Positions 37,585-58,979 of a stretch of DNA of 64,000 bases are shown one piece after another. How positions within the stretch are numbered: position 1 is the first letter of the stretch; every line of letters starts with the position of its first letter. The notes beneath the pieces are model-generated. The model made no database searches, was not told the DNA's origin, and saw only the letters and a program-made list of their open reading frames with translations. Made by a program: the position numbers and the translations under genes. The DNA comes from Thermoleophilia bacterium (GTDB taxonomy: Bacteria > Actinomycetota > Thermoleophilia > Gaiellales > JAICJC01), in contig JAICJC010000001.1 in assembly GCA_025928655.1 (NCBI GenBank), forward strand, positions 2,898 through 66,897, in the 5' to 3' direction.

Positions 37585-38010
37585 ATGCTGAACAAGCTGA
37601 CCAACGTGAACGTCTGGGTGCACGACCAGGAGGAGGCGCTCGCCTTCTACACCGAGAAGCTGGGCATGGAGGTGCGCGCCGACGTCACCGTTCCCGAGCT
37701 GGGCGGCTTCCGCTGGCTCACGGTCGGGCTGCCAGGCCAGGACGACGTCGCCCTCGCGCTCATGACCGTGCCGGGGCCGCCGGTCTTCGACGACGAGACC
37801 CGGGCCGCGCTCGCGACCATCGTCGCCAAGGGCGCCGCCGGCGGGCTGTTCTTCTCGGTCGACGACTGCCACGCCGCCTACGAGGAGCTGCGGCGGCGCG
37901 GCGTCGAGTTCTCGCAGGAGCCGACCCAGCAGCCCTACGGCGTCGACGCCGGGTTCCGCGACCCGTCCGGCAACCAGATGCGGATGGCGACGCTCTCCGA
38001 GCCGGCCTGA
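37585..38010 (+). CDS. VOC (glyoxalase/bleomycin resistance) family protein
   Basis: 141 aa. VWVHDQEEALAFYTEKLGMEV...FRDPSGNQMRM. SD GGGAGGGA lies upstream. Confidence 0.9.
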   Translation: MLNKLTNVNVWVHDQEEALAFYTEKLGMEVRADVTVPELGGFRWLTVGLPGQDDVALALMTVPGPPVFDDETRAALATIVAKGAAGGLFFSVDDCHAAYEELRRRGVEFSQEPTQQPYGVDAGFRDPSGNQMRMATLSEPA

Positions 38011-38019
38011 CGGAGAACC

Positions 38020-38052
38020 GGGGACAGTCCCCGCGCGGCGGGGACTGTCCCC
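38020..38052. terminator. palindromic repeat, family B copy 2 (GGGGACAGTCCCC-gcgcggc-GGGGACTGTCCCC)
   Basis: A 13-bp perfect stem between convergent genes. It is followed by a second palindrome, CCCCACATGTGGGG, at 38049-38062. Confidence 0.65.
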
Positions 38053-38062
38053 ACATGTGGGG

Positions 38063-38719
38063 TCAAATCGCGAGCTCCGCCCGCACGGCGGCGTCCAGCG
38101 CGTCCGGGTCAAACCCGTACGGCCCCTCGCCTCCCTGGTAGGCGACGCGCCCGGCTGCGTCGATCAGGTAGAGGCGGTCGGGCCAGCCGCCATACGCCGA
38201 TGCGGCGGCGTCGTCGGTGTCATCGAGCAGCATCGGGATGGTCGTCTCGAGCTTGAGCTCGAGGGCGCAGGTCGCAGCGACCTCGGCCCGCTCGGACAGC
38301 ATGCGTGGGTCGGCCACCGCGACCCCCGCCGCGCGGTTCTCCTCGAGCACCCAGCCGTCCTCGGGATGCGCCTCGCGGATGTAGACGATCAGGTAGGCGA
38401 CCCGGTCGCCGTAGCGGCGGTGTTGCTCCTCGAGGGCGCCCAACTGGCGCCGGAACGGCGGTCAGGTGTACGACCCGAAGATCAACGCCACCGGCCGGGT
38501 GCCCAGGTGGTCGCCGAGGTCGACGATCTCCGCCGTCACCCGCCGGTGGGCATCCAGCCGCGGCAGCCGGACCGCCGGCGCGGTGTCGCCGACCGCGACC
38601 GTGGGCGTGCCCAGGTTGCGGTAGAGCCCCGACGTCCGGATGTCGGCCAGCCTCAGCGGCGAGTCGGCGGGCGTGGGCGGCTCCCCGGGGGCGCCGTTCG
38701 GGTCCTGCGCACCTCGCAC
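38063..38719 (-). CDS. iodothyronine-deiodinase-like thioredoxin-fold protein with an in-frame TGA at 38462-38464 (candidate selenocysteine)
   Basis: Track ORFs 38462..38719 and 38063..38443 share one frame and are separated only by a TGA plus 6 codons. The joined sequence reads ALIFGSYT-[TGA]-PPFRRQLGALEEQHRRYGDRVAYLIVYIREAHPEDGW. This matches the deiodinase-family FGS.T(U/C)PPF active site. Confidence 0.7.
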
Positions 38720-38869
38720 GGCGGCACCGTATGCGAGCTCGCTCGGTCGCGCAAGGGCCCGCGTTCGCCGGTGCTAGGATGGCCGGTGTTTTGTTGCCGG
38801 GGGGCTGAACGGCGGGCCGAAAGGCCGCTCGGGACGGGTCGTGTGGGGGGCCGGCGGAGGGGAGGGCCG

Positions 38870-40096
38870 TTGGCGACAGTGAGCTTCGAAAACGTCGCGA
38901 AGGTGTACCCGGATGGGACGCGCGCGGTGTCGGGTATGAACCTCACGATCGACGATCGCGAGTTCATGGTGTTCGTCGGGCCGTCCGGGTGCGGGAAGAC
39001 GACGGCCCTGCGCATGGTCGCCGGGCTCGAGTCGATCTCGGAAGGCGTGGTGCGGATCGGCGATCGCCCGGTCAACCACGTCCCGTCGCGCGACCGCGAC
39101 ATCGCCATGGTGTTCCAGAGCTACGCCCTCTACCCGCACCTCTCGGTCTACGAGAACATCGCCTTCGGGCTGCGGGTGCGGAAGATGTCCAAACAGGAGA
39201 TCGACCAGCGCGTGCAAAATGCCGCGTCGATCCTCGGCCTGGAGGGGTTCCTCGACCGCAAGCCCCGCGCCCTCTCGGGCGGCCAGCGGCAGCGCGTTGC
39301 GATGGGCAGGGCGATCGTGCGGGAGCCGGCGGCGTTCCTGATGGACGAGCCGCTGTCGAATCTCGACGCCAAGCTGCGGGTGCAGATGCGAGCCGAGATC
39401 GGCGGCCTCCAGCACGACCTGGGCGTCACCACGATCTACGTCACCCACGATCAGGTGGAGGCCATGACGATGGGCGACCGTGTGGCGGTGATGCGCAAGG
39501 GCGAGGTGCAGCAGGTCGCGCCTCCCCAGGAGCTCTACGACAACCCCGTCAACCTGTTCGTGGCCGGGTTCATCGGCAGCCCGGCGATGAACATGTTCGA
39601 GGGTGTGATCCGCGCCGACAACGGCAGCCTCGCCGTCGAGGCGGGCAGCCAGCGGCTGACCCTCGACGAGAGCCTGGTGGGGGCGCGGCCGGCCCTGCGC
39701 GCGTACGCCGACCGCACCGTCGTCGTCGGTGTCCGGCCCGAGGACATCCAGGACGTCGCCCTCGCGCCCGACACACCCTCCGATCGGCGCCTGCGCGGGA
39801 AGGTGCTCCTCACCGAGGCCCTGGGCTCCGAGATCGTCGTCCACCTCGCCGTCGACACGCCTCCGGCGTCCACCGACGAGGCGCTGGAGCTGGCCTCGGA
39901 GGCCGACGAGGTGCGACGGCCGGCGTTGAACGAGGACGACCAGACCACCACGACCTTCGTCGGCCGTTTCGGCCCCCGATCGCGCGTCGCCGTGGGAGAC
40001 CAGATCGAGAGCGCGGTGGACACGCGCTCGCTGCACTTCTTCGATCCCGCCACCGGGCTCGGAATCCATGACCAGACAGAAGGAGCTCGCCCATGA
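38870..40096 (+). CDS. sugar ABC transporter ATP-binding protein (MalK/UgpC/MsiK type)
   Basis: The TTG start gives MATVSFENVAKVY after SD GGAGGGGAGGG. Walker A GPSGCGKTT, LSGGQRQR, Walker B FLMDEPLSNLDA. A C-terminal TOBE-like domain is present. Confidence 0.9.
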   Translation: MATVSFENVAKVYPDGTRAVSGMNLTIDDREFMVFVGPSGCGKTTALRMVAGLESISEGVVRIGDRPVNHVPSRDRDIAMVFQSYALYPHLSVYENIAFGLRVRKMSKQEIDQRVQNAASILGLEGFLDRKPRALSGGQRQRVAMGRAIVREPAAFLMDEPLSNLDAKLRVQMRAEIGGLQHDLGVTTIYVTHDQVEAMTMGDRVAVMRKGEVQQVAPPQELYDNPVNLFVAGFIGSPAMNMFEGVIRADNGSLAVEAGSQRLTLDESLVGARPALRAYADRTVVVGVRPEDIQDVALAPDTPSDRRLRGKVLLTEALGSEIVVHLAVDTPPASTDEALELASEADEVRRPALNEDDQTTTTFVGRFGPRSRVAVGDQIESAVDTRSLHFFDPATGLGIHDQTEGARP

Positions 40097-41415
40097 GCCT
40101 TCGGCATCGAACCCTTGCGTGTGTCCTGGCCGCCGGCGCGGTCTCCCTGGCCGCGGGCTGCGGCGGGAGCTCCGGCGGCTCGTCCAGCGGTGGAGCGGGC
40201 GGCTCGACCAGCTCGGTCTCCGGCTCCGTCTCCTTCGTCGGCATCTGGTCGGGCCCGGAGCAGAAGTCGTTCCAGACCGTGATCGACGCCTTCAACAAGC
40301 AGTATCCGAAGGTGCACGTCAAGTACACGTCCGCAGGCAACAACATCACGACCGTGCTCTCCACCGCCGTCCAGGGCGGGAATCCGCCCGACCTCGCCGA
40401 CATCGCCCAGCCCGGGTTCGTGACGCAGCTCCAGCAGAAGGGCGCCCTCAAGCCGATCGAGTTCGCACGCAGCGCGATCCAGCAGAACTTCGGCACCGGC
40501 GGGACGCAGCTCGGCGAGATCAACGGGAAGCTGTACGGGCTCCTGTTCAAGGCGTCCAACAAGTCGACCGTCTGGTACAACGTCGCGGCGTTCAAGAACG
40601 CCGGCGTCACGCCCCCGACGACATGGCCGGACTTCCTCAACGACGCGAAGACCCTCAAGGCGTCGGGGACGCCCGCCTACTCGATCGGCGGCTCCGAGGG
40701 CTGGACGCTGACCGACCTGTTCGAGAACATCTATCTGCGGCAGGCCGGCCCGGACAAGTACGACCAGCTGTCGAAGCACGAGATCAAGTGGACCGACCCG
40801 TCGGTGATCGCGGCGCTGAAGACGATGGCGCAGGTCATCGGCGACACGAGCAACATCTACGGCGGCACGTCCGGCGCCCTTCAGACCGACTTCGCGACGT
40901 CGGTCAACAACGTGCTCGTGCCGTCCGGCAAGACCGCGAAGGCGGCCATGGTGATCGAGGGCGACTTCGTCCCCGGCACCGCGACGACGGGGGCGAAGCC
41001 CGTCACCGACTACAACGTCTTCGCGTTCCCGTCGATCGACAACTCGCCGCCGGTCACCGAGGTCTCCGGCGACGAGATCGTGATGTTCAAGGACTCGCCG
41101 GCGTCGGAGGCGTTCATCAAGTTCCTGGCGACGCCGCAGGCCGCAGAGGCGTGGGCGAGCCGCGGAGGCTTCGGCACGCTCAACAAGAAGGTGCCCTTGA
41201 GCACGTACTCCGATCCGATCTCGAGGAAGGTCGCCCAGACGCTGGCGACGTCCAAGGTGTCCCGGTTCGACCTCTCGGACCTCCAGCCGGCGGCGTTCGG
41301 CGCGACGGTCGGCCAGGGTGAGTTCAAGATCTTCCAGGACTTCCTCAAGAACCCGAGCAACGTCAACGGGATCGCCCAGGAGCTCGAGAGCTCGGCCGCG
41401 GCCGCATACAAGTGA
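40093..41415 (+). CDS. sugar ABC transporter substrate-binding lipoprotein
   Basis: Lipobox LAAGCGG. 440 aa with a family-1 solute-binding pattern. ATGA overlap with the ATPase gene. Confidence 0.9.
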   Translation: MSLRHRTLACVLAAGAVSLAAGCGGSSGGSSSGGAGGSTSSVSGSVSFVGIWSGPEQKSFQTVIDAFNKQYPKVHVKYTSAGNNITTVLSTAVQGGNPPDLADIAQPGFVTQLQQKGALKPIEFARSAIQQNFGTGGTQLGEINGKLYGLLFKASNKSTVWYNVAAFKNAGVTPPTTWPDFLNDAKTLKASGTPAYSIGGSEGWTLTDLFENIYLRQAGPDKYDQLSKHEIKWTDPSVIAALKTMAQVIGDTSNIYGGTSGALQTDFATSVNNVLVPSGKTAKAAMVIEGDFVPGTATTGAKPVTDYNVFAFPSIDNSPPVTEVSGDEIVMFKDSPASEAFIKFLATPQAAEAWASRGGFGTLNKKVPLSTYSDPISRKVAQTLATSKVSRFDLSDLQPAAFGATVGQGEFKIFQDFLKNPSNVNGIAQELESSAAAAYK

Positions 41416-42755
41416 CCGACGCAGGCATCACGGCGGACGGGCCGCCCGCGCCGACGGCGCCGGGCGGCCCCGGCGTCGTCCAGCGGTACGGGATGGTGGC
41501 CGTGTTCCTGGCCCCGGCCATCGTCGTGCTCGGGGTCTGGATCGTCTACCCCACCGTCTACACGATCGTCCGCAGCCTCTTCGGAGCCTCGGGGTGGGAC
41601 GACTTCGTCGGCGTCCACAACTACCGCACGCTGTTCTCCGACAGCAACCTGCGCACGGCGATCAAGAACAACGCGATCTGGGTCGCGGTCATCCCGGCCC
41701 TCGTCACGTCGATCGGGCTCGTGTTCGCGGTCCTGATCGAACGCATCCGGTGGTCGGTGGCATTTCGCCTGGCCGTGTTCATGCCCATGGCGATCTCGCT
41801 GTTCGCCGCCGGCGTGATCTGGCGCATCCAGTATCAGCAGGACCCGAGCCTGGGGGCGATCAACGCCGCGGTCGCCTCGGTCAAGAACGCCGTGAGCCCG
41901 CCCGGAGTGCTGTCGACGGCATCGCCGTCCACCAAGGCGCTCTCGGGCAGCCCGCAGAAGGACGGCCTGCAGCTCCGCTCGCCGGTGCGGAAGGGCAGCG
42001 TCGCCCTGCTCGGCGTGACGGCCATCAACATCACGGAGATCCCGAAGACGTCGAAGCAGGCCGTCAAGCCCCAGCCGGACCCGAGCGGCATCACGGGCGT
42101 GGTCTGGCGCGACTTCAAGCCGGGCGGCGGCAAGCCGGGCGTCCTGGAGCACGGCGAGGCCGGGCTCCCCGGCGTGACCGTCGAGCTGCGCGACTCCTCC
42201 GGCCACTCCGTGGCGACCGCCAAGACGGGCGACGACGGCGACTTCGTGTTCCCGAGCGTCGCCTCGGGCAGCTACCACGTCGCCATCGGCGCGTCGACGT
42301 TCGCGAAGCCCTACGGCGGCGTCGGCTGGCTCACCTCCAAGCTGATCACGCCGGCGATCATGATCGCCTACCTGTGGGTGTGGGCGGGCTTTGCGATGGT
42401 GGTGATCGCCGCCGGCCTCGCCGCCATCCCGCGCGACGTCCTGGAGGCCGCCCGCACGGACGGCGGGAGCGAATGGCAGGTGTTCCGGCGGGTCACGGTC
42501 CCGCTGCTCGCGCCGGTGCTCTCGGTGGTGTTCATCACGATGATCATCAACGTCCTCAAGGTCTTCGACGTCGTCCTGGCCGTCGCCCCCGAGTCGGTGC
42601 AGCCGGACGCGAACGTGATCGCGCTCGCGATGTGGCGGACGTCCTTCGGCGGCGTGAACGACTTCGGCCTCGGGTCGGCGATCGCCGTGCTCCTGTTCGT
42701 GCTCGTCGTACCCGTCCTGCTCCTGAACGTGCGCCGATTCCGTAGGGAGGTGTGA
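41412..42755 (+). CDS. sugar ABC transporter permease (MalF-like) with a large inserted extracytoplasmic loop
   Basis: 447 aa. The EAA-type loop is AAGLAAIPRDVLEAARTDGGSEWQVFRRVTVP. A roughly 170-aa insertion between TM3 and TM4 contains an Ig-like module. Confidence 0.85.
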   Translation: MTDAGITADGPPAPTAPGGPGVVQRYGMVAVFLAPAIVVLGVWIVYPTVYTIVRSLFGASGWDDFVGVHNYRTLFSDSNLRTAIKNNAIWVAVIPALVTSIGLVFAVLIERIRWSVAFRLAVFMPMAISLFAAGVIWRIQYQQDPSLGAINAAVASVKNAVSPPGVLSTASPSTKALSGSPQKDGLQLRSPVRKGSVALLGVTAINITEIPKTSKQAVKPQPDPSGITGVVWRDFKPGGGKPGVLEHGEAGLPGVTVELRDSSGHSVATAKTGDDGDFVFPSVASGSYHVAIGASTFAKPYGGVGWLTSKLITPAIMIAYLWVWAGFAMVVIAAGLAAIPRDVLEAARTDGGSEWQVFRRVTVPLLAPVLSVVFITMIINVLKVFDVVLAVAPESVQPDANVIALAMWRTSFGGVNDFGLGSAIAVLLFVLVVPVLLLNVRRFRREV

Positions 42756-42757
42756 GG

Positions 42758-43660
42758 ATGACCGCCGCCGCCGAGATCGCGACCGAGGCGCCGACAATGC
42801 CCGCCGAGCCGCACGATTCCGTTGCGGCGCGGATCGGCCGGGCGGTCGCCAAGGCGCCGCTGCAGATCTTCCTGATCCTCGTGGCGCTGCTCTGGCTCGT
42901 GCCGACATTCGGCCTGTTCATCACGTCGATCATGCCGACGTCGCTGGTCAGCCAGGAAGGGTGGTGGAAGTTCTTCTCCCACCCGAGCATCGCGACGTTC
43001 TCCAACTACCGGGCCCTCTACGACAACTCCACCATCACGTCGTCGCTGCGCACCACGGCGGAGATCGCGATCGGCGGCACGGTGCTCCCGATCCTGATCG
43101 CCGCGCTTGCGGGATACGCGTTCGCATGGCTCGAGTTCCCGGGGCGCGACATCCTGTTCGTGGTCGTGATCGGGCTGCTGGTGGTGCCCGTGCAGATGGC
43201 CCTGATCCCCATCTTCAGCATCTACGACCATCTCGGCCTGTTCGACACGGTGCTCGGGCTGGTGCTCTTCCACACGGCGTTCGGGCTGCCGTTTGCGATC
43301 TTCCTGCTGCGGAACTTCTTCGTCGGCATCCCCCGGGACATCCTCGAGTCCGCGCGCATCGACGGCGCCTCCGAGATGCGCATCTTCATCCGCCTCATCC
43401 TGCCGCTCGGGCTGCCGGCGATCGCGTCGCTTGCGATCTTCCAGTTCCTGTGGACGTGGAACGACCTGATCGTCGCGCTGACGCTCGCCCGCAACACGCA
43501 GCCGATCACCGTGGCGATCTTCTCCCAGATGCGCGAGTTCGGCACCAACGTCGACATCATCGCCCCGGCCAGCTTCATCTCGCTCGTGGTGCCGCTGATC
43601 GTGTTCTTCGCCTTCCAGCGCTACTTCGTGCAGGGGCTCCTGGCGGGGTCGGTCAAGTAG
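42758..43660 (+). CDS. sugar ABC transporter permease (MalG-like)
   Basis: ATG at 42758 lies 7 nt after SD GGGAGG (the track GTG at 42752 is too close to the SD). Motif ILESARIDGASEMRIFIRLILP. Confidence 0.85.
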   Translation: MTAAAEIATEAPTMPAEPHDSVAARIGRAVAKAPLQIFLILVALLWLVPTFGLFITSIMPTSLVSQEGWWKFFSHPSIATFSNYRALYDNSTITSSLRTTAEIAIGGTVLPILIAALAGYAFAWLEFPGRDILFVVVIGLLVVPVQMALIPIFSIYDHLGLFDTVLGLVLFHTAFGLPFAIFLLRNFFVGIPRDILESARIDGASEMRIFIRLILPLGLPAIASLAIFQFLWTWNDLIVALTLARNTQPITVAIFSQMREFGTNVDIIAPASFISLVVPLIVFFAFQRYFVQGLLAGSVK

Positions 43661-43661
43661 C

Positions 43662-44768
43662 GTGGCCGACCAGCCGGTCGCCGTCGTGGGATCGGGGCTC
43701 GCGGCCTTCTGCGCCTACGTCACGCTTCGGCACGGCGGCCTGGAGCCTGGCGAGGTGGCGGTGTTCGGCCCGACCGCCGACCCCGCCCATGCCTGGCGCC
43801 GGCGCGCGGACGCGATCAGCCAGCGGGCGATGCGATCGGAGAGCGACGGCCACTGCTTCGCATCGAGCTTCCCCGGTCTCGCGATCCGCACGATCAACCG
43901 GCGCAGCAGCCTGGGGCCGCTCGTCCAGACCGTCCTCGACCGGTACCACCCGACCGTCGAGGAGTTCCTCGACCACGTGTCCGCCCTGCGGGCCCGTTGC
44001 GGCTGGGACGAGAGCCTGCGTCCCGCGCGGGTCGAGCGTGTCCGCGCCGTCGGCGAGGGGTTCGAGATCGACGGGCAGGGGCCGTTCGCCCACGTGCTGG
44101 TCGCGCCGGGGCATCCCGGGCTGGCGCGGCCGGCCGAGCTCGCCGGCGATCCCCGCGCCGTGCACGCCTACGAGCCCCACGGGTACGCCTCGAGCGTGAC
44201 GGTCGTGGGGGCGGGGCTGGCGGCAGCGACCGAGTGGCTGAACGCGCTTGCGGCGGGGGCGACGGTCGTGTCCGTGCGCCGTCGCGAGCCGGTGCGGCGC
44301 CCGCTCAACGTCCCCCGATCCCTGTTGTCGCGTCGGGGCCTCGGCCGGTTCCACGCGGCCCCCGCCGCCGAGCGGCTTGCGACCCTCGAGCGGGTGCTGG
44401 CACCGTCGTTTCCGCCCAGCCGGCACGTCGACCGGGTGCTGGCCGACGCCGCCCGGGCCGGCCGCTTCGCCACGGCCCCGAGCGTGAACGGCTCCGCGCA
44501 GATCATCTGCGCCACCGGGTTCGCGCGCGGATACCGGGCCGACCCGTTGCTGAGCAGGCTGGTCGACGACCACGGGCTCGAGACGGCCGGTCATCTGATC
44601 GTGCTGGATCCCGATTCGACCGTGCCGGCGCTGACGGGCCGCGGGCGGACGCTGGCGCTGGCCGGCGTCCCCGCCCAGTGGGCGTACCCGGCCGCGGACA
44701 CGCTGGCCGGTGCCAAGTACTCGGCCCGCCGCTTCCTCCGCAGGGTGAGGGCATGTCGTACACGCTGA
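43662..44768 (+). CDS. FAD/NAD(P)-binding oxidoreductase
   Basis: Two dinucleotide-binding motifs are present: VAVVGSGLAAF at the N-terminus and VTVVGAGLAAATE internally. 368 aa. Confidence 0.7.
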   Translation: MADQPVAVVGSGLAAFCAYVTLRHGGLEPGEVAVFGPTADPAHAWRRRADAISQRAMRSESDGHCFASSFPGLAIRTINRRSSLGPLVQTVLDRYHPTVEEFLDHVSALRARCGWDESLRPARVERVRAVGEGFEIDGQGPFAHVLVAPGHPGLARPAELAGDPRAVHAYEPHGYASSVTVVGAGLAAATEWLNALAAGATVVSVRRREPVRRPLNVPRSLLSRRGLGRFHAAPAAERLATLERVLAPSFPPSRHVDRVLADAARAGRFATAPSVNGSAQIICATGFARGYRADPLLSRLVDDHGLETAGHLIVLDPDSTVPALTGRGRTLALAGVPAQWAYPAADTLAGAKYSARRFLRRVRACRTR

Positions 44769-45958
44769 GAGGCCGGATGGAGTCGCGTCTCGCCGGATGG
44801 ATCGTGGCCTTCGGGGTGGCGGTGGCGGCGACGGGGTGGACGCGGGTGTGGTGGCCGGTGGAGCTGGCGGTGGTGATGCTGGGCGTGGGCCTCGCGTGCG
44901 ACCTCCTCCTGTACCACCGGCCCCTCGACTACCAGCCCGGGTGGGCGGCGCTCCCGATCGGCCTGTTCGAGCTGGGGCTGGTGATGGCGCTCGCCCGCGT
45001 GATCCCGATCGCGGCGCCGGCCCGCCCGGCGATTGCGCTGTTCGCGGTCGGCTGGGTGTCGGGGCTTGTCCTGGGGCAGGCCCTGCTCCCGATGCTGCGG
45101 TTGTCCTACGCCGAGGACGGGGGCGAGCTCGGTCGCGCCGGGCCGGCGCTCGCCCTGGCCGTTGCCGGCGTCGTCGCAGCCGCCGGTGGGATCGCCTGGG
45201 TGTCACAGCCGCCGACGGTCTATCTCGCCGCCGGCGTCCATCGCGGGCCCCTCGTCATCGACCGCACGGAAACGCTCATCGGCCGACCGGGCGCGGTGAT
45301 CCACGGCGGGCTCGTGATCAAGGCCGACAACGTCACCGTCCGCGACGTCACCGTCGTCGGCGGCCAGGACGGCGTGACCGTCGAGGGCGCCACCGGCGTC
45401 GTCCTTGACCGGGTGCACGTGCGGGGCGCCGAGCTGGACGGCTTCCACGTCCGCCGGGCCCAGGTCATGATCGACGACTGCTCCGTGCGCGGGATGCGAA
45501 GCCGGTTCGCCCAGGGCATCGATATCTCGTTCACGTTCGACCAACCCATGAGCATGGTGGAGGGGTGCCGGATCCGCGGCGGCCAGGAGGGGATCGTCTC
45601 GGACTCGGCGCGGGTGATGGTGGAGCGCAACACCGTCACGACCACCACGCTTCGCGGCATCACCGTGACGGAGATGTCGATGAGCTCCGTCGAGGACAAC
45701 AACGTCGACGGCGGCCTCGGGATCGGCATCTTCTGTGCCGACCAGTCGGAGTGCCTGATCGCCGGGAACCGGGTCGCCGGCACGCGCCCCGACCCCGCGT
45801 CGTCCGATCTCAGCAGGCTCGGCTATGCCATCGTCGCCCATTCGGCCGCGACCGCGTACCTGGAGGCCAACCGGGTGGCGGGCAACCCCCACGGGATCGG
45901 CGTCTTCGCGGGCGGCTACCTCCGCCGGGGCGACTCCGGCTTCAGCACCACGATGTGA
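44753..45958 (+). CDS. membrane protein with right-handed parallel beta-helix (NosD/pectin-lyase-like) repeats
   Basis: ATG at 44753 after SD GGTGAGGG. About 4 N-terminal TM helices, then repeated V.V....V.G motifs (VTVRDVTVVGGQDGVTVEGATGVVLDRVHVRGA...). Confidence 0.7.
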   Translation: MSYTLRGRMESRLAGWIVAFGVAVAATGWTRVWWPVELAVVMLGVGLACDLLLYHRPLDYQPGWAALPIGLFELGLVMALARVIPIAAPARPAIALFAVGWVSGLVLGQALLPMLRLSYAEDGGELGRAGPALALAVAGVVAAAGGIAWVSQPPTVYLAAGVHRGPLVIDRTETLIGRPGAVIHGGLVIKADNVTVRDVTVVGGQDGVTVEGATGVVLDRVHVRGAELDGFHVRRAQVMIDDCSVRGMRSRFAQGIDISFTFDQPMSMVEGCRIRGGQEGIVSDSARVMVERNTVTTTTLRGITVTEMSMSSVEDNNVDGGLGIGIFCADQSECLIAGNRVAGTRPDPASSDLSRLGYAIVAHSAATAYLEANRVAGNPHGIGVFAGGYLRRGDSGFSTTM

Positions 45959-45960
45959 CC

Positions 45961-45983
45961 CGGTCGGGGTCAGACCCCGATCG
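45961..45983. repeat. palindromic repeat, family A copy 5 (CGGTC-GGGGTCAGACCCC-GATCG)
   Basis: The same 13-nt core as the other family A copies, located 3 nt after the stop at 45956-45958. Confidence 0.55.
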
Positions 45984-46037
45984 GTCGCCGTCGCACCCGG
46001 GCGACACCTTTGTGACGCCCGATCCTTGAACTCGGTG

Positions 46038-47348
46038 ATGGAGTGTTTCGTCCGGCACGAGCCGGGGAAACGTGGCCTCACCTTGAGTACGCGTCGAATT
46101 CTGGGCGTCGCGGTGGGGGTCATGGGTCTTCTGGCAGTGGCCGCCGCATGCGGGAGCAGCAGCGGCACCGGCAAGGGCCCGGTCACGCTCAACTGGTACA
46201 TCTTCCCCGAGTTCTCCGGCGCGTTCGTGAAGAGCGCCGCCCAGTGCTCCGCGCACTCGAACGGCTCGTACAACATCAAGATCCAGACGCTCCCGAACGC
46301 GGCCGACGGCCAGCGCCAGCAGATGGTGCGCCGCCTGGCCGCCGACGACTCCTCGCTCGACATCCTCGGCCTGGACGTCACCTGGACGCCCGAGTTCGCC
46401 GAGGCCGGGTGGATCCAGCCCTGGCCGCAGAACCTGGCCCAGCGGGTCGAGAAGGGCACGCTGAAGTCGATGGTGGACACCGCGACGTGGGACGGCAAGC
46501 TCTACTCGGCCCCGTTCAACACGAACACCCAGCTGCTCTGGTACCGCAAGGACCTGGTGCCGCACCCGCCCACGACGTGGAAGCAGATGATCTCGATGGC
46601 GAACAAGCTCGCCCAGGAGGGCAAGCCGCACCACATCGAGATCCAGGGCGCCCAGTACGAGGGCTACACCGTCTGGTTCAACACCCTCGTGAACTCGGCT
46701 GGCGGCAAGATCATGAGCGACGACGGCCAGAAGGTCATCCTCGGGCATCCGGCCGTGGTGGCGCTCGACACGATCCACGACCTGGTGCACTCCAAGGGCG
46801 CCGACCCGTCGATCGGAAACCAGATGGAGGACCAGACCCGGCTCCAGTTCGAGGCGGGCGTGGCGGCGTTCGAGCTCAACTATCCGTACGTCTACCCGTC
46901 GGCCAAGGCCGACGTGCCGGACATCTTCAAGAACATGCGCTGGACGGTGTACCCGACGGTGAAGCCGGGCGAGCCGACGCACGTCACCATCGGCGGCATC
47001 GACCTCGCCGTCGGCAAGTTCTCCAAGCACAAGGCGCAGGCGTTCGCGGCCATCCAGTGCCTGCGCAACCCGCAGAACGAGATCCGCAACGCCGTGCTCG
47101 GCGGCCTGCCGCCGGTGCTCGAGTCGATCTACTCGCAGCCGTCGTTCCAGAAGGCCTACCCGATGTGGAAGGCCATCTTCCAGACCCTGAAGCAGGCCAG
47201 CGTGCGGCCGAAGACGCCGGCCTACCAGAGCGTGTCGCTGCAGATCTCCTACACCCTGTCGCCGCCGAGCTCGGTCTCGGCGAGCGATCTCGGGACCCTG
47301 AAATCGCGCATCCAGGACGCGATCGACTCGAAGGGGCTGGTGCCGTGA
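46038..47348 (+). CDS. sugar ABC transporter substrate-binding lipoprotein (alternative TTG start at 46083)
   Basis: Lipobox [12 protein letters not shown] and a family-1 SBP body. The start is uncertain among GTG 46035, ATG 46038 and TTG 46083. Confidence 0.85.
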
Positions 47349-48316
47349 GGCCCCCGTTGGGGACGCCCAGGCTGGGTGCGGTCGCCGACGCCGGCGTGCA
47401 GGTCGGACAGCCCCCGCGCAAGCGGATGCTCACGGAGCGGCAGCGGGCCGAGCGCAAGCTGGCCTGGATGCTGTGCGCCCCGGCCGTGGCCGTCATGGCG
47501 CTCGTCGCGATCTACCCGATCATCTACGCCATCTACCTGTCGTTCCAGCGCTACGACCTGCGCTTCCCGGCCGACAAGACGTGGGTCGGGATCTCGAACT
47601 ACACGACGATCCTCACGTCGACGAGCCTGTGGTGGCAGGCGTTCGGCGTCACGGTGCTGATCACCGTCGTCTCGGTGGTCATCGAGCTCGTCCTGGGGAT
47701 GCTCGCCGCCATCGTCATGCACCGGGCGATCTTCGGGCGCGGGATCGTCCGCACGGCCGTGCTGCTCCCGTACGGGATCGTCACGGTCGTCGCCGCCTTC
47801 AGCTGGCAGTATGCGTGGACCCCCGGCACGGGCTACCTGGCGGGTCTCCTGGGCGGGAACTCGGCGCCGCTCACGCACCAGTGGCAGGCCATCCCGATCA
47901 TCATCCTGGCCGAGGTGTGGAAGACCACCCCGTTCATGGCGCTGCTCCTGCTGGCCGGGCTCTCGCTCGTGCCCGAGGAGCTGCTGCGGGCGGCCAAGGT
48001 CGATGGCGCGACCGCGTGGCAGCGCTTCTGGCGGGTGATGGTGCCGGTGATGAAGCCCGCGATCCTGGTCGCGCTGCTCTTCCGCACCCTGGACGCCTTC
48101 CGCATCTTCGACAACATCTACATCCTCACCCAGGGCTCGCAGAACACGCGCTCGGTCTCGATCCTCGACTACGACCAGCTGTTCACCGCGCTCAACCTGG
48201 GGGTGGGCTCGGCGATGTCGGTGCTGATCTTCCTCTTCACCGCGCTGATCGCCTTCGGCTACATCAAGGGCTTCGGGGCGGCCGCCCCCGGCCAGGACGT
48301 GAGGGGGGTGCGATGA
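47345..48316 (+). CDS. sugar ABC transporter permease (alternative ATG start at 47426)
   Basis: GTG at 47345 overlaps the SBP stop (GTGA) and follows SD GAAGGGG. Motif [22 protein letters not shown]. Confidence 0.8.
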
Positions 48317-49143
48317 ACGTCACCGCACGGCAGCGCGTGGGCTGGGGCGCCGCGAACGTGGTCGTGGTGCTGATCGCGGCGATCCCGGTGCTGTGGCTCG
48401 TGTCGCTCTCGTTCAAGGATCCGACCACGCTCACCGACGGCAGCTTCTACCCGCACAAGTGGACGACCGCGAACTACCGCGGCATCTTCAACCAGCCGCT
48501 GTTCACGCACGCGCTCATCAACTCGATCGGCATCGCCCTCATCTCGACGATCCTGGGCGTCGTCCTGGGCGCCATGGCCGCCTACGCGATCGCGCGGCTC
48601 GACTTCCCCGGCAAGCGCCTGCTCGTGGCCTCGGCGCTCCTGATCGCGATGTTCCCGGCCATCTCGCTCGTGAACCCGATGTTCAACCTGTGGCGGACGC
48701 TCGGGATCTTCGACACCTGGATCGGGCTCATCATCCCGTACATGACCTTCTCGCTGCCGCTCTCGATCTACACGCTGTCGGCCTTCTTTCGCGAGATCCC
48801 GTGGGAGCTCGAGCGGGCGGCGGCGCTCGACGGGGCCACGCCGCTGCAGGCATTCCGGCGCGTGATCGTGCCGCTGGCGGCGCCGGGGGTCTTTACCACG
48901 GCGATCCTGGTCTTCCTGTACTGCTGGAACGACTTCGTGTTCGCGATCTCGCTCACGTCCACCAACAACGCGCGCACGGTGCCGGCCGCGATCGCGTTCT
49001 TCACGGGGGCGTCCCAGTTCCAGCAGCCCACCGGGTCGATCGCCGCGGCGGCGGTCGTCATCACCGTCCCCGTCATCGTCGTCGTCATGCTGTTCCAGCG
49101 CCGGATCGTCGCCGGCCTCACCGCCGGCGCGGTGAAGGGCTAG
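48313..49143 (+). CDS. sugar ABC transporter permease
   Basis: ATGA overlap with the upstream gene. Motif [23 protein letters not shown]. Confidence 0.9.
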
Positions 49144-49150
49144 GGGTCAC

Positions 49151-50350
49151 ATGGCAGAGATCGTCCTCGACCACGTCACCAAGCGATTCCCGGACGGCGC
49201 CCTGGCCGTCAACGACGTCAACCTCACGATCGCCGACGGCGAGTTCGTGATCCTGGTCGGCCCCTCGGGGTGCGGCAAGTCGACGACCCTGAACATGATC
49301 GCCGGGCTCGAGGACATCTCCGAAGGACAGCTGCGCATCGGCGGCGACGTCGCGAACGAGAAGTCGCCGCGCGACCGCGACATCGGCATGGTGTTCCAGA
49401 GCTACGCCCTCTACCCGCACATGACCGTGCGCGAGAACATGGCCTTCGCGCTGCGGCTGGCCAAGGAGGACGACGAGAAGATCAAGGAGCGGGTCGACTG
49501 GGCGGCCGACATCCTCGACCTGAAGCAGCACCTCGACCGCAAGCCCGGCCAGCTCTCGGGCGGCCAGCGCCAGCGGGTGGCGATGGGGCGCGTGATCGTG
49601 CGCACGCCGAACGCCTTCCTGATGGACGAGCCGCTCTCGAACCTGGACGCGAAGCTGCGCGTGCAGATGCGCACCGAGGTCTCGCGGCTGCAGAAGCGGC
49701 TCGGGACGACCACCGTGTACGTCACCCACGACCAGGTCGAGGCGATGACGCTCGGCGACCGCGTGGCCGTCATGCGCGCGGGCCAGATCCAGCAGGTCGA
49801 CAGCCCCGAGGTGCTGTACGAGCACCCGACGAACCTGTTCGTGGCCGGGTTCATCGGCTCCCCGGCCATGAACTTCCTGCCGGCGAAGGCGAAGGACGGG
49901 ACGCTGCAGACACCGCTCGGCGAGCTGCGGCTGCCCGCCGGCCGGGGCCGTGGGCTGGGCGGCGGCGAGCGCGACGTCATCATCGGGATCCGGCCCGAGC
50001 ACTTCGAGGACGCATCGCTGGTGGGGGCCGACAAGCGCGACCGCGGCGCCACCGTCAAGGCCAAGATCGACCTGCTCGAGTCGCTCGGCTCGGACAAGTT
50101 CGCCTACTTCACCGTCCAGAGCGAGCGGGCGACGGCGGAGCACCTGCAGGAGCTCGCGGCCGACGCCGGCACGGGCGACCTGGGCGCAGGCGAGGAGGGC
50201 GTGCAGGTGACGGCACGGCTCGACGCGGCCAGCAAGGCGGCCGAGGATCAGGAGCTCGAGATCTGGCTCGACCTCGAGAAGGTGCACGTCTTCGACCCCG
50301 AGAGCGGCGAGAACCTGACGCTGGCCGACGGCGAGCCGCAGGCCGAATAG
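49151..50350 (+). CDS. sugar ABC transporter ATP-binding protein (MalK/MsiK type)
   Basis: Walker A GPSGCGKST, LSGGQRQR, Walker B FLMDEPLSNLDA. 399 aa. Confidence 0.9.
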   Translation: MAEIVLDHVTKRFPDGALAVNDVNLTIADGEFVILVGPSGCGKSTTLNMIAGLEDISEGQLRIGGDVANEKSPRDRDIGMVFQSYALYPHMTVRENMAFALRLAKEDDEKIKERVDWAADILDLKQHLDRKPGQLSGGQRQRVAMGRVIVRTPNAFLMDEPLSNLDAKLRVQMRTEVSRLQKRLGTTTVYVTHDQVEAMTLGDRVAVMRAGQIQQVDSPEVLYEHPTNLFVAGFIGSPAMNFLPAKAKDGTLQTPLGELRLPAGRGRGLGGGERDVIIGIRPEHFEDASLVGADKRDRGATVKAKIDLLESLGSDKFAYFTVQSERATAEHLQELAADAGTGDLGAGEEGVQVTARLDAASKAAEDQELEIWLDLEKVHVFDPESGENLTLADGEPQAE

Positions 50351-56691: not shown

Positions 56692-57879
<1,188 letters not shown>

Positions 57880-57882
57880 GGA

Positions 57883-58914
57883 TCAGCCCTCCGTCCAGTC
57901 GAGCACGACCTTGCCGGATCGGCCCGAGCGCGCGATGGCGAAGCCCTCGGCGAACTCGGAGTACGGCAGGCGGTGCGTGATGACCGGCGAGATGTCGAGC
58001 CCCGACTGCACCATGACGGTCATCTGGTACCAGGTCTCGTACATCTCGCGGCCGTAGATCCCGCGCAGCGTCAGCATGTTGAAGACGACCTGCGTCCAGT
58101 CGATCGCGATCTCCTCGGTGGGAATGCCGAGCAGCGCGATGCGGCCGCCGTGGGACATGCTCGCGATCAGCTGGTGCAGGGCCGCGGGGTTCCCCGACAT
58201 CTCGAGCCCGACGTCGAAGCCCTCCGTCATGCCGAGCTGGTGCTGCACGTCAGGGAGCGCTCGCTCGCCCGGATCGACGGTCAGGCTCGCGCCCAGCGCC
58301 GCCGCCAGCTCGCGCCGGTACGGGTTGGGGTCGCTCACGACGACGTGGCGCGCGCCGGCGTGACGGACGACCGCCGCCGCCATGCAGCCGATCGGCCCGG
58401 CACCCGTGATGAGCACGTCCTCGCCCAGGACCGGGAAGGCGAGCGCGGTGTGCACGGCGTTCCCGAACGGGTCGAAGATCGCAGCCACCGCCTCGTCGAT
58501 CCCCGGCCAGTGGTGCCAGATGTTCGTCATCGGCAGGGCGATCAGCTCGGCGAACGCGCCCGGCCGGCTCACGCCGACGCCCTGCGAGTGGGCGCACAGG
58601 TGGCGGCGCCCCGCCATGCAGTTGCGACAGCGGCCGCAGACGACGTGGCCCTCGCCGCTCACGAGGTCGCCGGGGTGGAAGTCGCTCACGTTGCAGCCGA
58701 CCTCGACCACCTCGCCCACGAACTCGTGCCCGATCACGAGCGGGACGGGGATCGTCCGCTGCGCCCAGCTGTCCCAGCGCTCGATGTGGACGTCGGTGCC
58801 GCAGATCCCCGTGCGCCGGACGCGGATCAGGACGTCGTTGATGCCGTGCTCCGGCTCGGGGACGTCCTCCAGCCACAGGCCCGGCTCGGCGCGGCTCTTC
58901 ACCAGGGCGCGCAT
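57883..58914 (-). CDS. tdh: L-threonine 3-dehydrogenase
   Basis: MRALVKS..., [36 protein letters not shown] and ITGAGPIG. The ATG at residue 11 of the track ORF was chosen. Confidence 0.92.
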
Positions 58915-58930
58915 ATCCGAGCAGGAGGAT

Positions 58931-58979
58931 ATGCCCGAACGCACCAGACGGGGTCAGACCCCTTTTGGTGCGCGGGCAT
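58931..58979. terminator. palindromic repeat, family A copy 3, nested arms ATGCCCG/GCACCA/GGGGTC-a-GACCCC/TGGTGC/CGGGCAT
   Basis: A 49-nt three-tier palindrome between the PNPOx-family gene stop (58983) and the tdh start (58914). Confidence 0.6.

Follow-up and report, generated by a model that had tools for sequence, protein, structure and literature searches.

In a stretch of 64,000 nt (64 kb) from contig JAICJC010000001.1 of an uncultured, high-GC Thermoleophilia bacterium of the order Gaiellales (assembly GCA_025928655.1), here called the window and used for the numbering of all coordinates, a candidate selenoprotein gene on the minus strand (38063-38719) was analyzed. The favored reading is a single intact gene for a soluble, 218-residue protein of the deiodinase family with a thioredoxin fold, in which the in-frame UGA at codon 86 is read as selenocysteine (Sec) by means of a selenocysteine insertion sequence (SECIS); as judged from the sequence data, we give this reading a probability of roughly 0.9. 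Comparison with relatives shows one intact gene, predicted to be translated through UGA 86 and not to terminate there, and very probably the in-frame UGA encodes Sec. The locus is a new, misannotated member of a selenoprotein family known since 2005 and not a new kind of selenoprotein. The following features of the gene are used below:

38063..38719, minus strand: complete deiodinase-like selenoprotein gene as predicted, with GTG start at 38719, TGA stop at 38065-38063 and 218 residues including Sec86
38462..38464, minus strand: in-frame UGA, codon 86, probably read as Sec; conserved in relatives and aligned to the catalytic Sec of the deiodinases Dio3 and Dio2
38453..38479, minus strand: active-site motif F81-G-S-Y-T-U-P-P-F89, with a conservation of at least 95% among 158 Sec forms
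38435..38451, minus strand: SECIS-like hairpin consisting of GGCGCC (38451-38446), loop AGUUG (38445-38441) and GGCGCC (38440-38435)
38351..38383, minus strand: edge and hydrogen-bond motif of the deiodinase-type insertion, Y113-I-R-E116-A-H118-P-E-D-G-W123, aligned to YIEEAHPSDGW of Dio3
38267..38269, minus strand: Cys151 (TGC), the only cysteine of the protein, 99% conserved in the 158 Sec forms

The minus-strand open reading frames (ORFs) 38462..38719 and 38063..38443 lie in one frame, whose sole interruption is the TGA at 38464-38462. It is followed by six sense codons (CCG CCG TTC CGG CGC CAG) and by the TTG at 38443, which opens the downstream ORF as listed. An initial annotation of this DNA had reported two ORFs sharing one frame, split only by the TGA and six sense codons, and a read-through product of about 218 residues. 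Layout and translation were confirmed, and the joined product comprises 85 + U + 6 + 126 = 218 residues with the sequence given there, the UGA being codon 86. Around the UGA, the joined protein reads ...RPVALIFGSYT-U-PPFRRQLGALEEQHRRYGDRVAYLIVYIREAHPEDGW..., also written ...PVALIFGSYT-U-PPFRRQLGALEE.... According to the sequence and the N-termini of homologues, no in-frame start other than GTG 38719 precedes the conserved DSPL motif, and the joined gene contains no other stops or frameshifts. The G+C content at third codon positions (GC3) reaches 0.98 over the 60 codons that precede the TGA and 0.95 over the 60 codons that follow.

All in-frame TGAs of the 64 kb were filtered for coding sequence on both sides. 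Two passed, namely the one described here and the TGA at 57883-57885 (minus strand), which is an ordinary stop between the adjacent same-frame genes 57883..58944 and 56692..57879. Likewise, a search for further genes with in-frame TGA in the window and in all loci of relatives yielded only ordinary same-frame gene boundaries. TGA is the commonest ordinary stop in the window and ends 25 of the 38 confident ORFs, including the selenoprotein gene itself; therefore, the standard code applies and the recoding is local to codon 86.

For the comparison with relatives, 160 loci were sampled, comprising 80 recovered genomic loci and 80 metagenome loci from a scan seeded with a profile of cysteine (Cys) forms. 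At the Sec codon, TGA was found inside FGSYT*PPF in all 80 genome loci. Also with the Cys-form profile as query, 78 of the 80 metagenome loci carried TGA, one carried TGC and one was without the motif. The genomic relatives are 45-88% identical to the window protein, with the homologue on the complete chromosome OY969568.1 at 88%, and the matches run through the TGA from residue 11 to residue 217. According to their record titles, these relatives include Gaiellales, Gaiellaceae, other Actinomycetota, Chloroflexota, Eisenbacteria, Myxococcota, Deltaproteobacteria and Gammaproteobacteria; the nearest relatives are labeled Actinomycetes and Gaiellales, and most of the 80 genome loci with the UGA form come from Gaiellales and other Actinomycetota. 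Among 156 distinct sequences, variability at codon positions 1, 2 and 3 was 0.13, 0.13 and 0.26 in the 15 codons upstream of the TGA and 0.19, 0.15 and 0.31 in the 55 codons downstream. Since variability peaks at position 3 on both sides, the conservation is of the coding type before and after the TGA, and together with the conserved TGA this excludes both a pseudogene and two separate genes.

As a pseudogene, the locus would be a Cys-type gene with a TGC-to-TGA nonsense mutation that is now decaying. Annotation pipelines indeed show two fragments, and the window copy carries a unique 6-nt insertion, AGCTCA at 38254-38259, which is an imperfect tandem copy of the neighboring AGCTCG, adds two residues just after Cys151 and does not occur in 157 of 158 relatives, the near-identical Joint Genome Institute (JGI) contig L084 among them. 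However, this insertion is in frame in an otherwise undisturbed gene, and the same TGA with coding-type conservation around it occurs in 158 independent relatives of several phyla, whose identities mark them as more than assembly copies of one sequence. The initial annotation had taken orthologs with a sense codon and without a conserved downstream hairpin as the sign of a pseudogene. Its check of the ortholog codons and of the hairpin gave the opposite: the relatives carry TGA and not a sense codon, Cys homologues with TGC or TGT exist, and the hairpin is conserved with covariation. A nonsense-mutated pseudogene is thus ruled out for practical purposes.

Two separate small genes would comprise an 85-residue peptide ending at the UGA and a 126-residue protein starting independently at TTG 38443. 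This is what automated callers report, as the initial annotation had anticipated: on contig JAICKE010000011.1 (GCA_025928085.1), the gene is annotated as an 85-residue protein and a 126-residue product, and on this contig and three JGI metagenome contigs the callers place an 85-residue protein without Pfam match beside a T4_deiodinase fragment of 126-135 residues. Moreover, the 126-residue downstream part alone still matches PF00837. Yet both the core of the thioredoxin fold and the active-site motif extend across the junction, none of the 158 relatives departs from the frame or the exact adjacency, the stretch of six codons from TGA to TTG is among the most conserved of the gene, and the called downstream start varies in relatives (fragments of 122-137 residues among the matches listed). 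We consider two genes extremely improbable.

The consequences of such gene calling are visible in the public databases. Among database proteins, those nearest to the query (60-98% identity) are, with few exceptions, fragments of 122-137 residues that cover its C-terminal 57%, while full-length entries are about 50% identical. In six full-length entries (P0007, P0009, P0013, P0033, P0043 and P0086), the Sec position is given as Trp. For P0009, the one checked (L087:410-1093), the DNA has TGA and the gene caller had used genetic code 4, and entries with Trp from code-4 calling conceal selenoproteins behind a false residue. The annotation therefore needs correction in GCA_025928085.1 and in most public entries for close relatives, which give an 85-residue hypothetical protein and a fragment of about 125 residues or a spurious Trp; split or read in this way, the full-length selenoprotein is invisible to functional surveys.

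In addition to the Sec forms, 13 proteins are Cys forms; for six loci (L090, L170-L174), the DNA confirms TGC or TGT. Among the 160 sampled loci, the Sec form is far commoner than the Cys form. Two sense-codon variants have an intact SECIS-type hairpin: the Ser form P0030 (L088:446-1054) with TCA at the Sec codon and CGCCGGC-AGUU-GCCGGCG, and the Cys form P0011 (L173:301-930) with TGT and GGCGUC-AGUUG-GACGUC. Both look like recent conversions from Sec; alternatively, the TCA is possibly a sequencing variant.

With the UGA entered as Cys, the joined protein matches the Pfam family T4_deiodinase (PF00837) with an E value of 1.3e-28 and 100.4 bits (cutoff 27), residues 41-208 falling on profile positions 73-229 of 237. 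The matches to AhpC-TSA (PF00578, 28.1 bits, cutoff 26) and Redoxin (PF08534) are weak. NCBIfam NF038285 'deiodinase_rel', a hypothetical equivalog, reached 194.5 bits (cutoff 250; E value 3e-57) over profile positions 177-340 of 347 only; its C-terminal catalytic half aligns, whereas its N-terminal part of about 170 residues is absent here. The only solved structures matched were the core of mouse Dio3 (4tr3, E value 5.7e-24) and the core of Dio2 (9h48, E value 3.8e-19). The UGA is aligned to their catalytic Sec, crystallized as Cys, and the counterparts of the active site are FGSCT(U/C)PPF in Dio3 and FGSAT(U/C)PPF in Dio2. Thereby, the earlier assignment to a deiodinase-like thioredoxin-fold family, with the UGA where these enzymes carry Sec or Cys, was borne out.

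An AlphaFold (AF2) model of the Cys homologue P0011, 54% identical to the window protein, had a predicted local distance difference test score (pLDDT) of 93.8 and a predicted template-modeling score (pTM) of 0.90. Its best structural matches were Dio2 and Dio3 (template-modeling scores of 0.71-0.81), followed by ResA, TlpA and peroxiredoxins. Among the 158 Sec forms, Ser83, Thr85, Sec86, Pro87, Pro88, Phe89, Arg90, Tyr113, Glu116, His118, Trp123, Arg144, Cys151, Asp181, Arg182, Leu183, Tyr184, Gly199 and Pro200 are conserved; in the insertion motif Y113, E116, A117, H118, P119 and W123 each reach at least 95%. The Tyr/Glu/His segment has a role in the hydrogen-bond or proton-relay network of Dio enzymes (PMC11592359), and several of the conserved residues correspond to this network. 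A membrane anchor was not detected, the maximum Kyte-Doolittle hydropathy over 19 residues being 1.21 (residues 147-165) and the N-terminus not being hydrophobic.

The hairpin was found as the initial annotation had described it, with an all-GC stem of 6 bp and a loop of 5 nt starting 10 nt after the UGA (38451-38435), and its SECIS-like character was substantiated by conservation with compensatory substitutions in relatives. The spacer between UGA and hairpin is CCGCCGUUCC (10 nt), and the stem-loop has 17 nt overall. As is said to have been found by Zinoni et al. in 1990 and Liu et al. in 1998, the minimal SECIS of fdhF from E. coli is a 17-nt stem-loop at about 11 nt from the UGA. Shared with the fdhF type are the position inside the ORF 3' of the UGA, a 17-nt stem-loop about 10-11 nt downstream and a loop with G followed by U, while the 5' arm here lacks the bulged U, and in many relatives one base is bulged in the 3' arm instead. 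Bacterial SECIS elements are characterized by a stem-loop that directly follows the UGA and has a small, G-containing apical loop (PMC1088965), and the hairpin has both features. We infer that it is a bacterial SECIS element recognized by SelB.

Folding of a 24-nt context of the window sequence gave -12.6 kcal/mol (z -2.7), a value attained by 3 of 200 shuffles. In a 45-nt context the hairpin is part of the minimum free energy (MFE) structure (77% of the ensemble), which has -17.8 kcal/mol with a lower stem and a z of only -1.15. This excess over chance is weak because the DNA has 72% GC, and the hairpin is judged real because of comparative evidence, not because of the single-sequence fold. 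RNAalifold placed its only consensus helix at the hairpin site. Covariation in a six-pair helix with a single bulge on the 3' side was compared with 500 shuffles: 90.7% of cells were paired versus 77.9% after shuffling, changes on both sides were found in 46 cells versus 13.9 expected, and the covariation score was 0.289 versus 0.095, falling to at most 0.06 with partners slid by 1-3 columns; none of the 500 shuffles reached any of the three observed values. Compensatory examples in the alignment are CGCCGGC-AGUU-GCCGGCG, CGCGUCC-AGUU-GGACGCG, GGAUCC-AGUUG-GGAUCC, GGGUUC-AGUUA-GGACCC and GGCUUC-AGUUA-GAAGCC. The register classes comprise loops of 4 or 5 nt with or without one bulged 3' base, at least 5 pairs being formed in all but 5 of 159 sequences, and the loop positions A29 and G30 are invariant in 81 aligned sequences. 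Across a 213-nt stretch of the 156 distinct sequences, stability is highest in the 26-nt windows that begin 9-11 nt past the TGA, with a mean of -11.3 versus -5.7 kcal/mol overall and 97% at -8 kcal/mol or lower. Gln at position +6, whose codon CAG forms the closing pair and the start of the loop, is present in 158 of 158 Sec forms versus 3 of 13 Cys forms. At the hairpin site of the six Cys-form DNAs, three fold weakly (-3.8 to -7.6 kcal/mol), and L173 keeps the AGUUG hairpin, which looks like a remnant SECIS of the kind reported after Sec-to-Cys conversion (PMC1794560).

For the window sequence only, a possible extension was predicted:

38425..38456, minus strand: possible extended SECIS with a lower stem of GUUCC (38456-38452) and GGAGC (38429-38425)

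In relatives, this lower stem (38452-38456/38425-38429) is 68% paired with almost no compensatory change and was rejected as unsupported.

Several results weigh against a SECIS-directed Sec insertion or leave parts of it to presumption. On the window sequence alone the hairpin is not clearly above shuffles, and a different long-range fold takes over as MFE structure in a 71-nt context. For relatives of the RAQVGT class, folding did not return the expected hairpin as MFE structure (L023), and two of the six Cys forms (L172, L173) also fold well at the site. Synonymous recoding barely weakens the hairpin (-11.8 observed versus -10.1 kcal/mol, mean z -0.8, not significant), because the pairing is carried by the choice of amino acids; part of the hairpin conservation could thus be at the protein level, and since this control cannot separate constraints on RNA and protein, covariation and the contrast between Sec and Cys forms were used instead. 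Rfam, searched with gathering thresholds over the whole window and with E values up to 10 over 38350-38500, returned no SECIS family and only a chance miRNA match. Regarding the decoding machinery, ARAGORN found no tRNA gene of any kind in the 64-kb window and no tRNA-Sec in the window or in the 80 genomic loci including their 3-kb flanks. Likewise, tblastn with E. coli SelA, SelB and SelD revealed no selA, selB or selD gene, either in the window or in the 80 loci with flanks of 3 kb. A lone SelB-like match in L036 was discarded, its translation resembling a GTPase of the BipA/TypA type. We assume that selA, selB, selD and the tRNA-Sec gene are located elsewhere in the genome; this location is presumed. 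In the neighboring class Rubrobacteria, Sec use is documented for Rubrobacter xylanophilus with five selenoproteins (PMC1794560), and a report of Sec use in Gaiellales was not found in the literature. The gene implies Sec use in the host lineage and, more widely, in Gaiellales-type soil actinobacteria.

The missing machinery in window and flanks, the non-significant recoding control and the 'W' versions in protein databases could also be combined to a different decoding, in which the UGA is read through by near-cognate insertion of Trp, Cys or Arg or by some other recoding and the hairpin is a mere stimulator of read-through or a by-product of protein constraint. Against this, the 'W' entry that was checked is a TGA translated with code 4, and the position is the catalytic Sec of Dio enzymes and Cys in homologues. 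Trp or Arg at this position would destroy the active site, and for Cys a TGC codon would suffice, as used in some lineages. In addition, the hairpin has bacterial SECIS spacing, a small loop containing G and covariation, and the family is accepted as a selenoprotein family. Decoding as another amino acid is therefore very unlikely, and reading of UGA 86 as Sec remains the favored explanation.

Deiodinase-like Sec proteins, their Cys homologues and bacterial SECIS elements were described in 2005 from the Sargasso Sea metagenome (Zhang, Fomenko and Gladyshev, PMC1088965), and the family is part of current lists of prokaryotic selenoproteins (PMC9312934, PMC13188914). The gene analyzed here shares with these PF00837, the in-frame UGA at the active site, the existence of Cys homologues and the downstream SECIS with G in a small loop. 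It differs in that the review tables give UxxC, a descriptive entry for the representative of the reviews and not a definition of the family, whereas here U-P-P-F is found and the sole Cys is distal (Cys151). Furthermore, most of the relatives found here belong to soil Actinomycetota (Gaiellales, Gaiellaceae) and not to marine plankton.

With the vertebrate deiodinases Dio1-3 (4tr3 and 4tr4 for Dio3, 9h48 for Dio2), the protein has in common the thioredoxin-fold core, the deiodinase insertion, FGSxT-Sec-PPF, the Tyr, Glu, His and Trp of YIxEAHPxDGW and the Arg of the (D/E)RLY strand. Unlike them, it is without an N-terminal membrane anchor, and their SECIS lies in the 3'-untranslated region, in contrast to the short hairpin inside the ORF here. 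The proton-relay set of Dio3 (Ser, Thr, Tyr, Glu, His202 and His219; PMC11592359) is incomplete, with S83, T85, Y113, E116 and H118 kept and the equivalent of His219 lost, and the basic residue of the carboxylate clamp (Arg275 in Dio3, Lys241 in Dio2) is not conserved. The residues concerned, of which His219 and Arg275 have been linked to the handling of thyroid hormone by the animal enzymes, are:

Dio3 His219: Pro138 here, Pro in 156 of 158 sequences
Dio3 Arg275: Glu198 here, in a variable column (E 86, V 22, P 19, R 15)
Dio3 Cys239: Ile161 here
Dio3 Cys168: Tyr84 here

Peroxiredoxins carry the peroxidatic motif PxxxT/SxxC. This motif is absent here, Thr85 being adjacent to Sec86, and the deiodinase-specific insertion is present. 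Common to the protein and to peroxiredoxins, TlpA and ResA are the fold, the nucleophile at the N-terminal end of helix 1 and, on a neighboring strand, a conserved Arg, and by analogy an arrangement of one nucleophile and one resolving Cys, as in peroxiredoxin-type proteins, is plausible. Deiodinases are closer than peroxiredoxins in both sequence and structure. An analogy with the DIF dechlorinase of Dictyostelium as a deiodinase homologue was considered and dropped, the enzyme being a glutathione S-transferase and the deiodinase homologue didA not being the dechlorinase (PMC3205185).

For function, the following sequence of events is proposed. The hairpin would recruit the complex of SelB, GTP and Sec-tRNA(Sec) to the ribosome, and UGA 86 would be read as Sec, while the terminal UGA of the same mRNA, being without such a hairpin, would end translation normally. 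In the folded protein, the selenolate of Sec86, positioned by Ser83, Thr85, Tyr113, Glu116, His118 and Trp123, would attack an electrophilic atom of the substrate and become oxidized (Se-X or Se-OH). Cys151, a candidate resolving cysteine, would then resolve the oxidized selenium to a selenenylsulfide, whose reduction by a thioredoxin-type reductant would regenerate the enzyme. We infer the catalytic cycle and the role of Cys151 purely from homology to Dio2 and Dio3 and from the conserved residues, and this counts among the points against the overall reading.

Regarding the substrate, the authors of the 2005 study considered the function of the prokaryotic deiodinase-like proteins to be probably a different redox reaction (PMC1088965). 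A hydroperoxide or another oxidant, handled in a peroxiredoxin-like manner, is our tentative suggestion, with a chance somewhat short of even. It is hinted at by a desaturase gene adjoining the gene in 46 Gaiellaceae loci and by a 1-Cys peroxiredoxin gene beside one Cys-form locus. Doubtful, if possible, is a true Sec-dependent reductive dehalogenase that shares its chemistry with the animal deiodinases but not their substrate, acts on natural halogenated phenolics in soil and is no peroxide or disulfide reductase. A halogenated aromatic substrate is favored by the retained deiodinase-specific motifs: FGSxT-U-PPF and the YI(R/E)EAHPxDGW edge with the proposed relay residues Glu and His are conserved and are absent from peroxiredoxins, and Dio2 and Dio3 are the closest structures, ahead of peroxiredoxins, ResA and TlpA. 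By contrast, the third relay residue and the substrate clamp are replaced as listed above, the neighboring genes just mentioned hint at handling of oxidants, and no experimental work on any bacterial deiodinase-like member was found in the literature. Some other substrate is given a similarly low chance, and thyroid hormone itself is unlikely. For the subfamily with UPPF and Cys151, an activity as cofactor-free, Sec-dependent reductive dehalogenase on natural organohalogens is still less likely; if it held true, the subfamily would be the bacterial counterpart, and possibly the evolutionary source, of the thyroid-hormone deiodinases of animals, and Gaiellales would be marked as habitual selenium users.

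The gene contexts of relatives were analyzed with called-gene tables and targeted tblastn; these replaced a clustering of neighbors by a crude ORF caller, which had produced antisense artefacts in the high-GC DNA. In the 46 Gaiellaceae-type loci (among L005-L071 and L108-L169), the TGA is preceded on its own strand by a fatty-acid desaturase gene (PF00487), whose end is about 215-255 nt away. In the loci L175 (8877-9767) and L176 (8814-9746), for which called genes are available, the desaturase gene ends 2-5 nt before the N-terminal deiodinase-like fragment, an arrangement suggestive of an operon. Downstream, 39 loci have a convergent gene for an acyl-CoA dehydrogenase. The window is without this arrangement of desaturase and acyl-CoA dehydrogenase genes, such contexts being lineage-specific. 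In a metagenome-assembled genome of Candidatus Dormibacteria, the Cys form P0032 is divergent from the 1-Cys peroxiredoxin gene (AhpC-TSA and 1-cysPrx_C domains; L171:4017-5588).

In the window, the neighbors are a convergent gene of the glyoxalase family (37585..38010) and a divergent operon for sugar ATP-binding cassette (ABC) transport. Between the convergent genes, one further element was found:

38019..38053, no strand: perfect 16-bp GC-rich inverted repeat just past the stop of the selenoprotein gene, terminator-like and without U tract

The repeat folds with -39.4 kcal/mol (z -4.8), none of 200 shuffles being as good, and may be an actinobacterial-type terminator acting in both directions; a scan for consensus promoters and terminators gave nothing at 37900-39000 and did not call the repeat. 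Divergent from the selenoprotein gene, the region 38870-50350 (plus strand) comprises two consecutive ABC transporter sets of the sugar type, each with a MalK-like ATPase, an SBP_bac_1 binding protein and two permeases. The two sets are separated by a gene without Pfam match and a gene with a NosD/Beta_helix domain, and one of the permeases contains an insertion with SdrD_B and CarboxypepD_reg.

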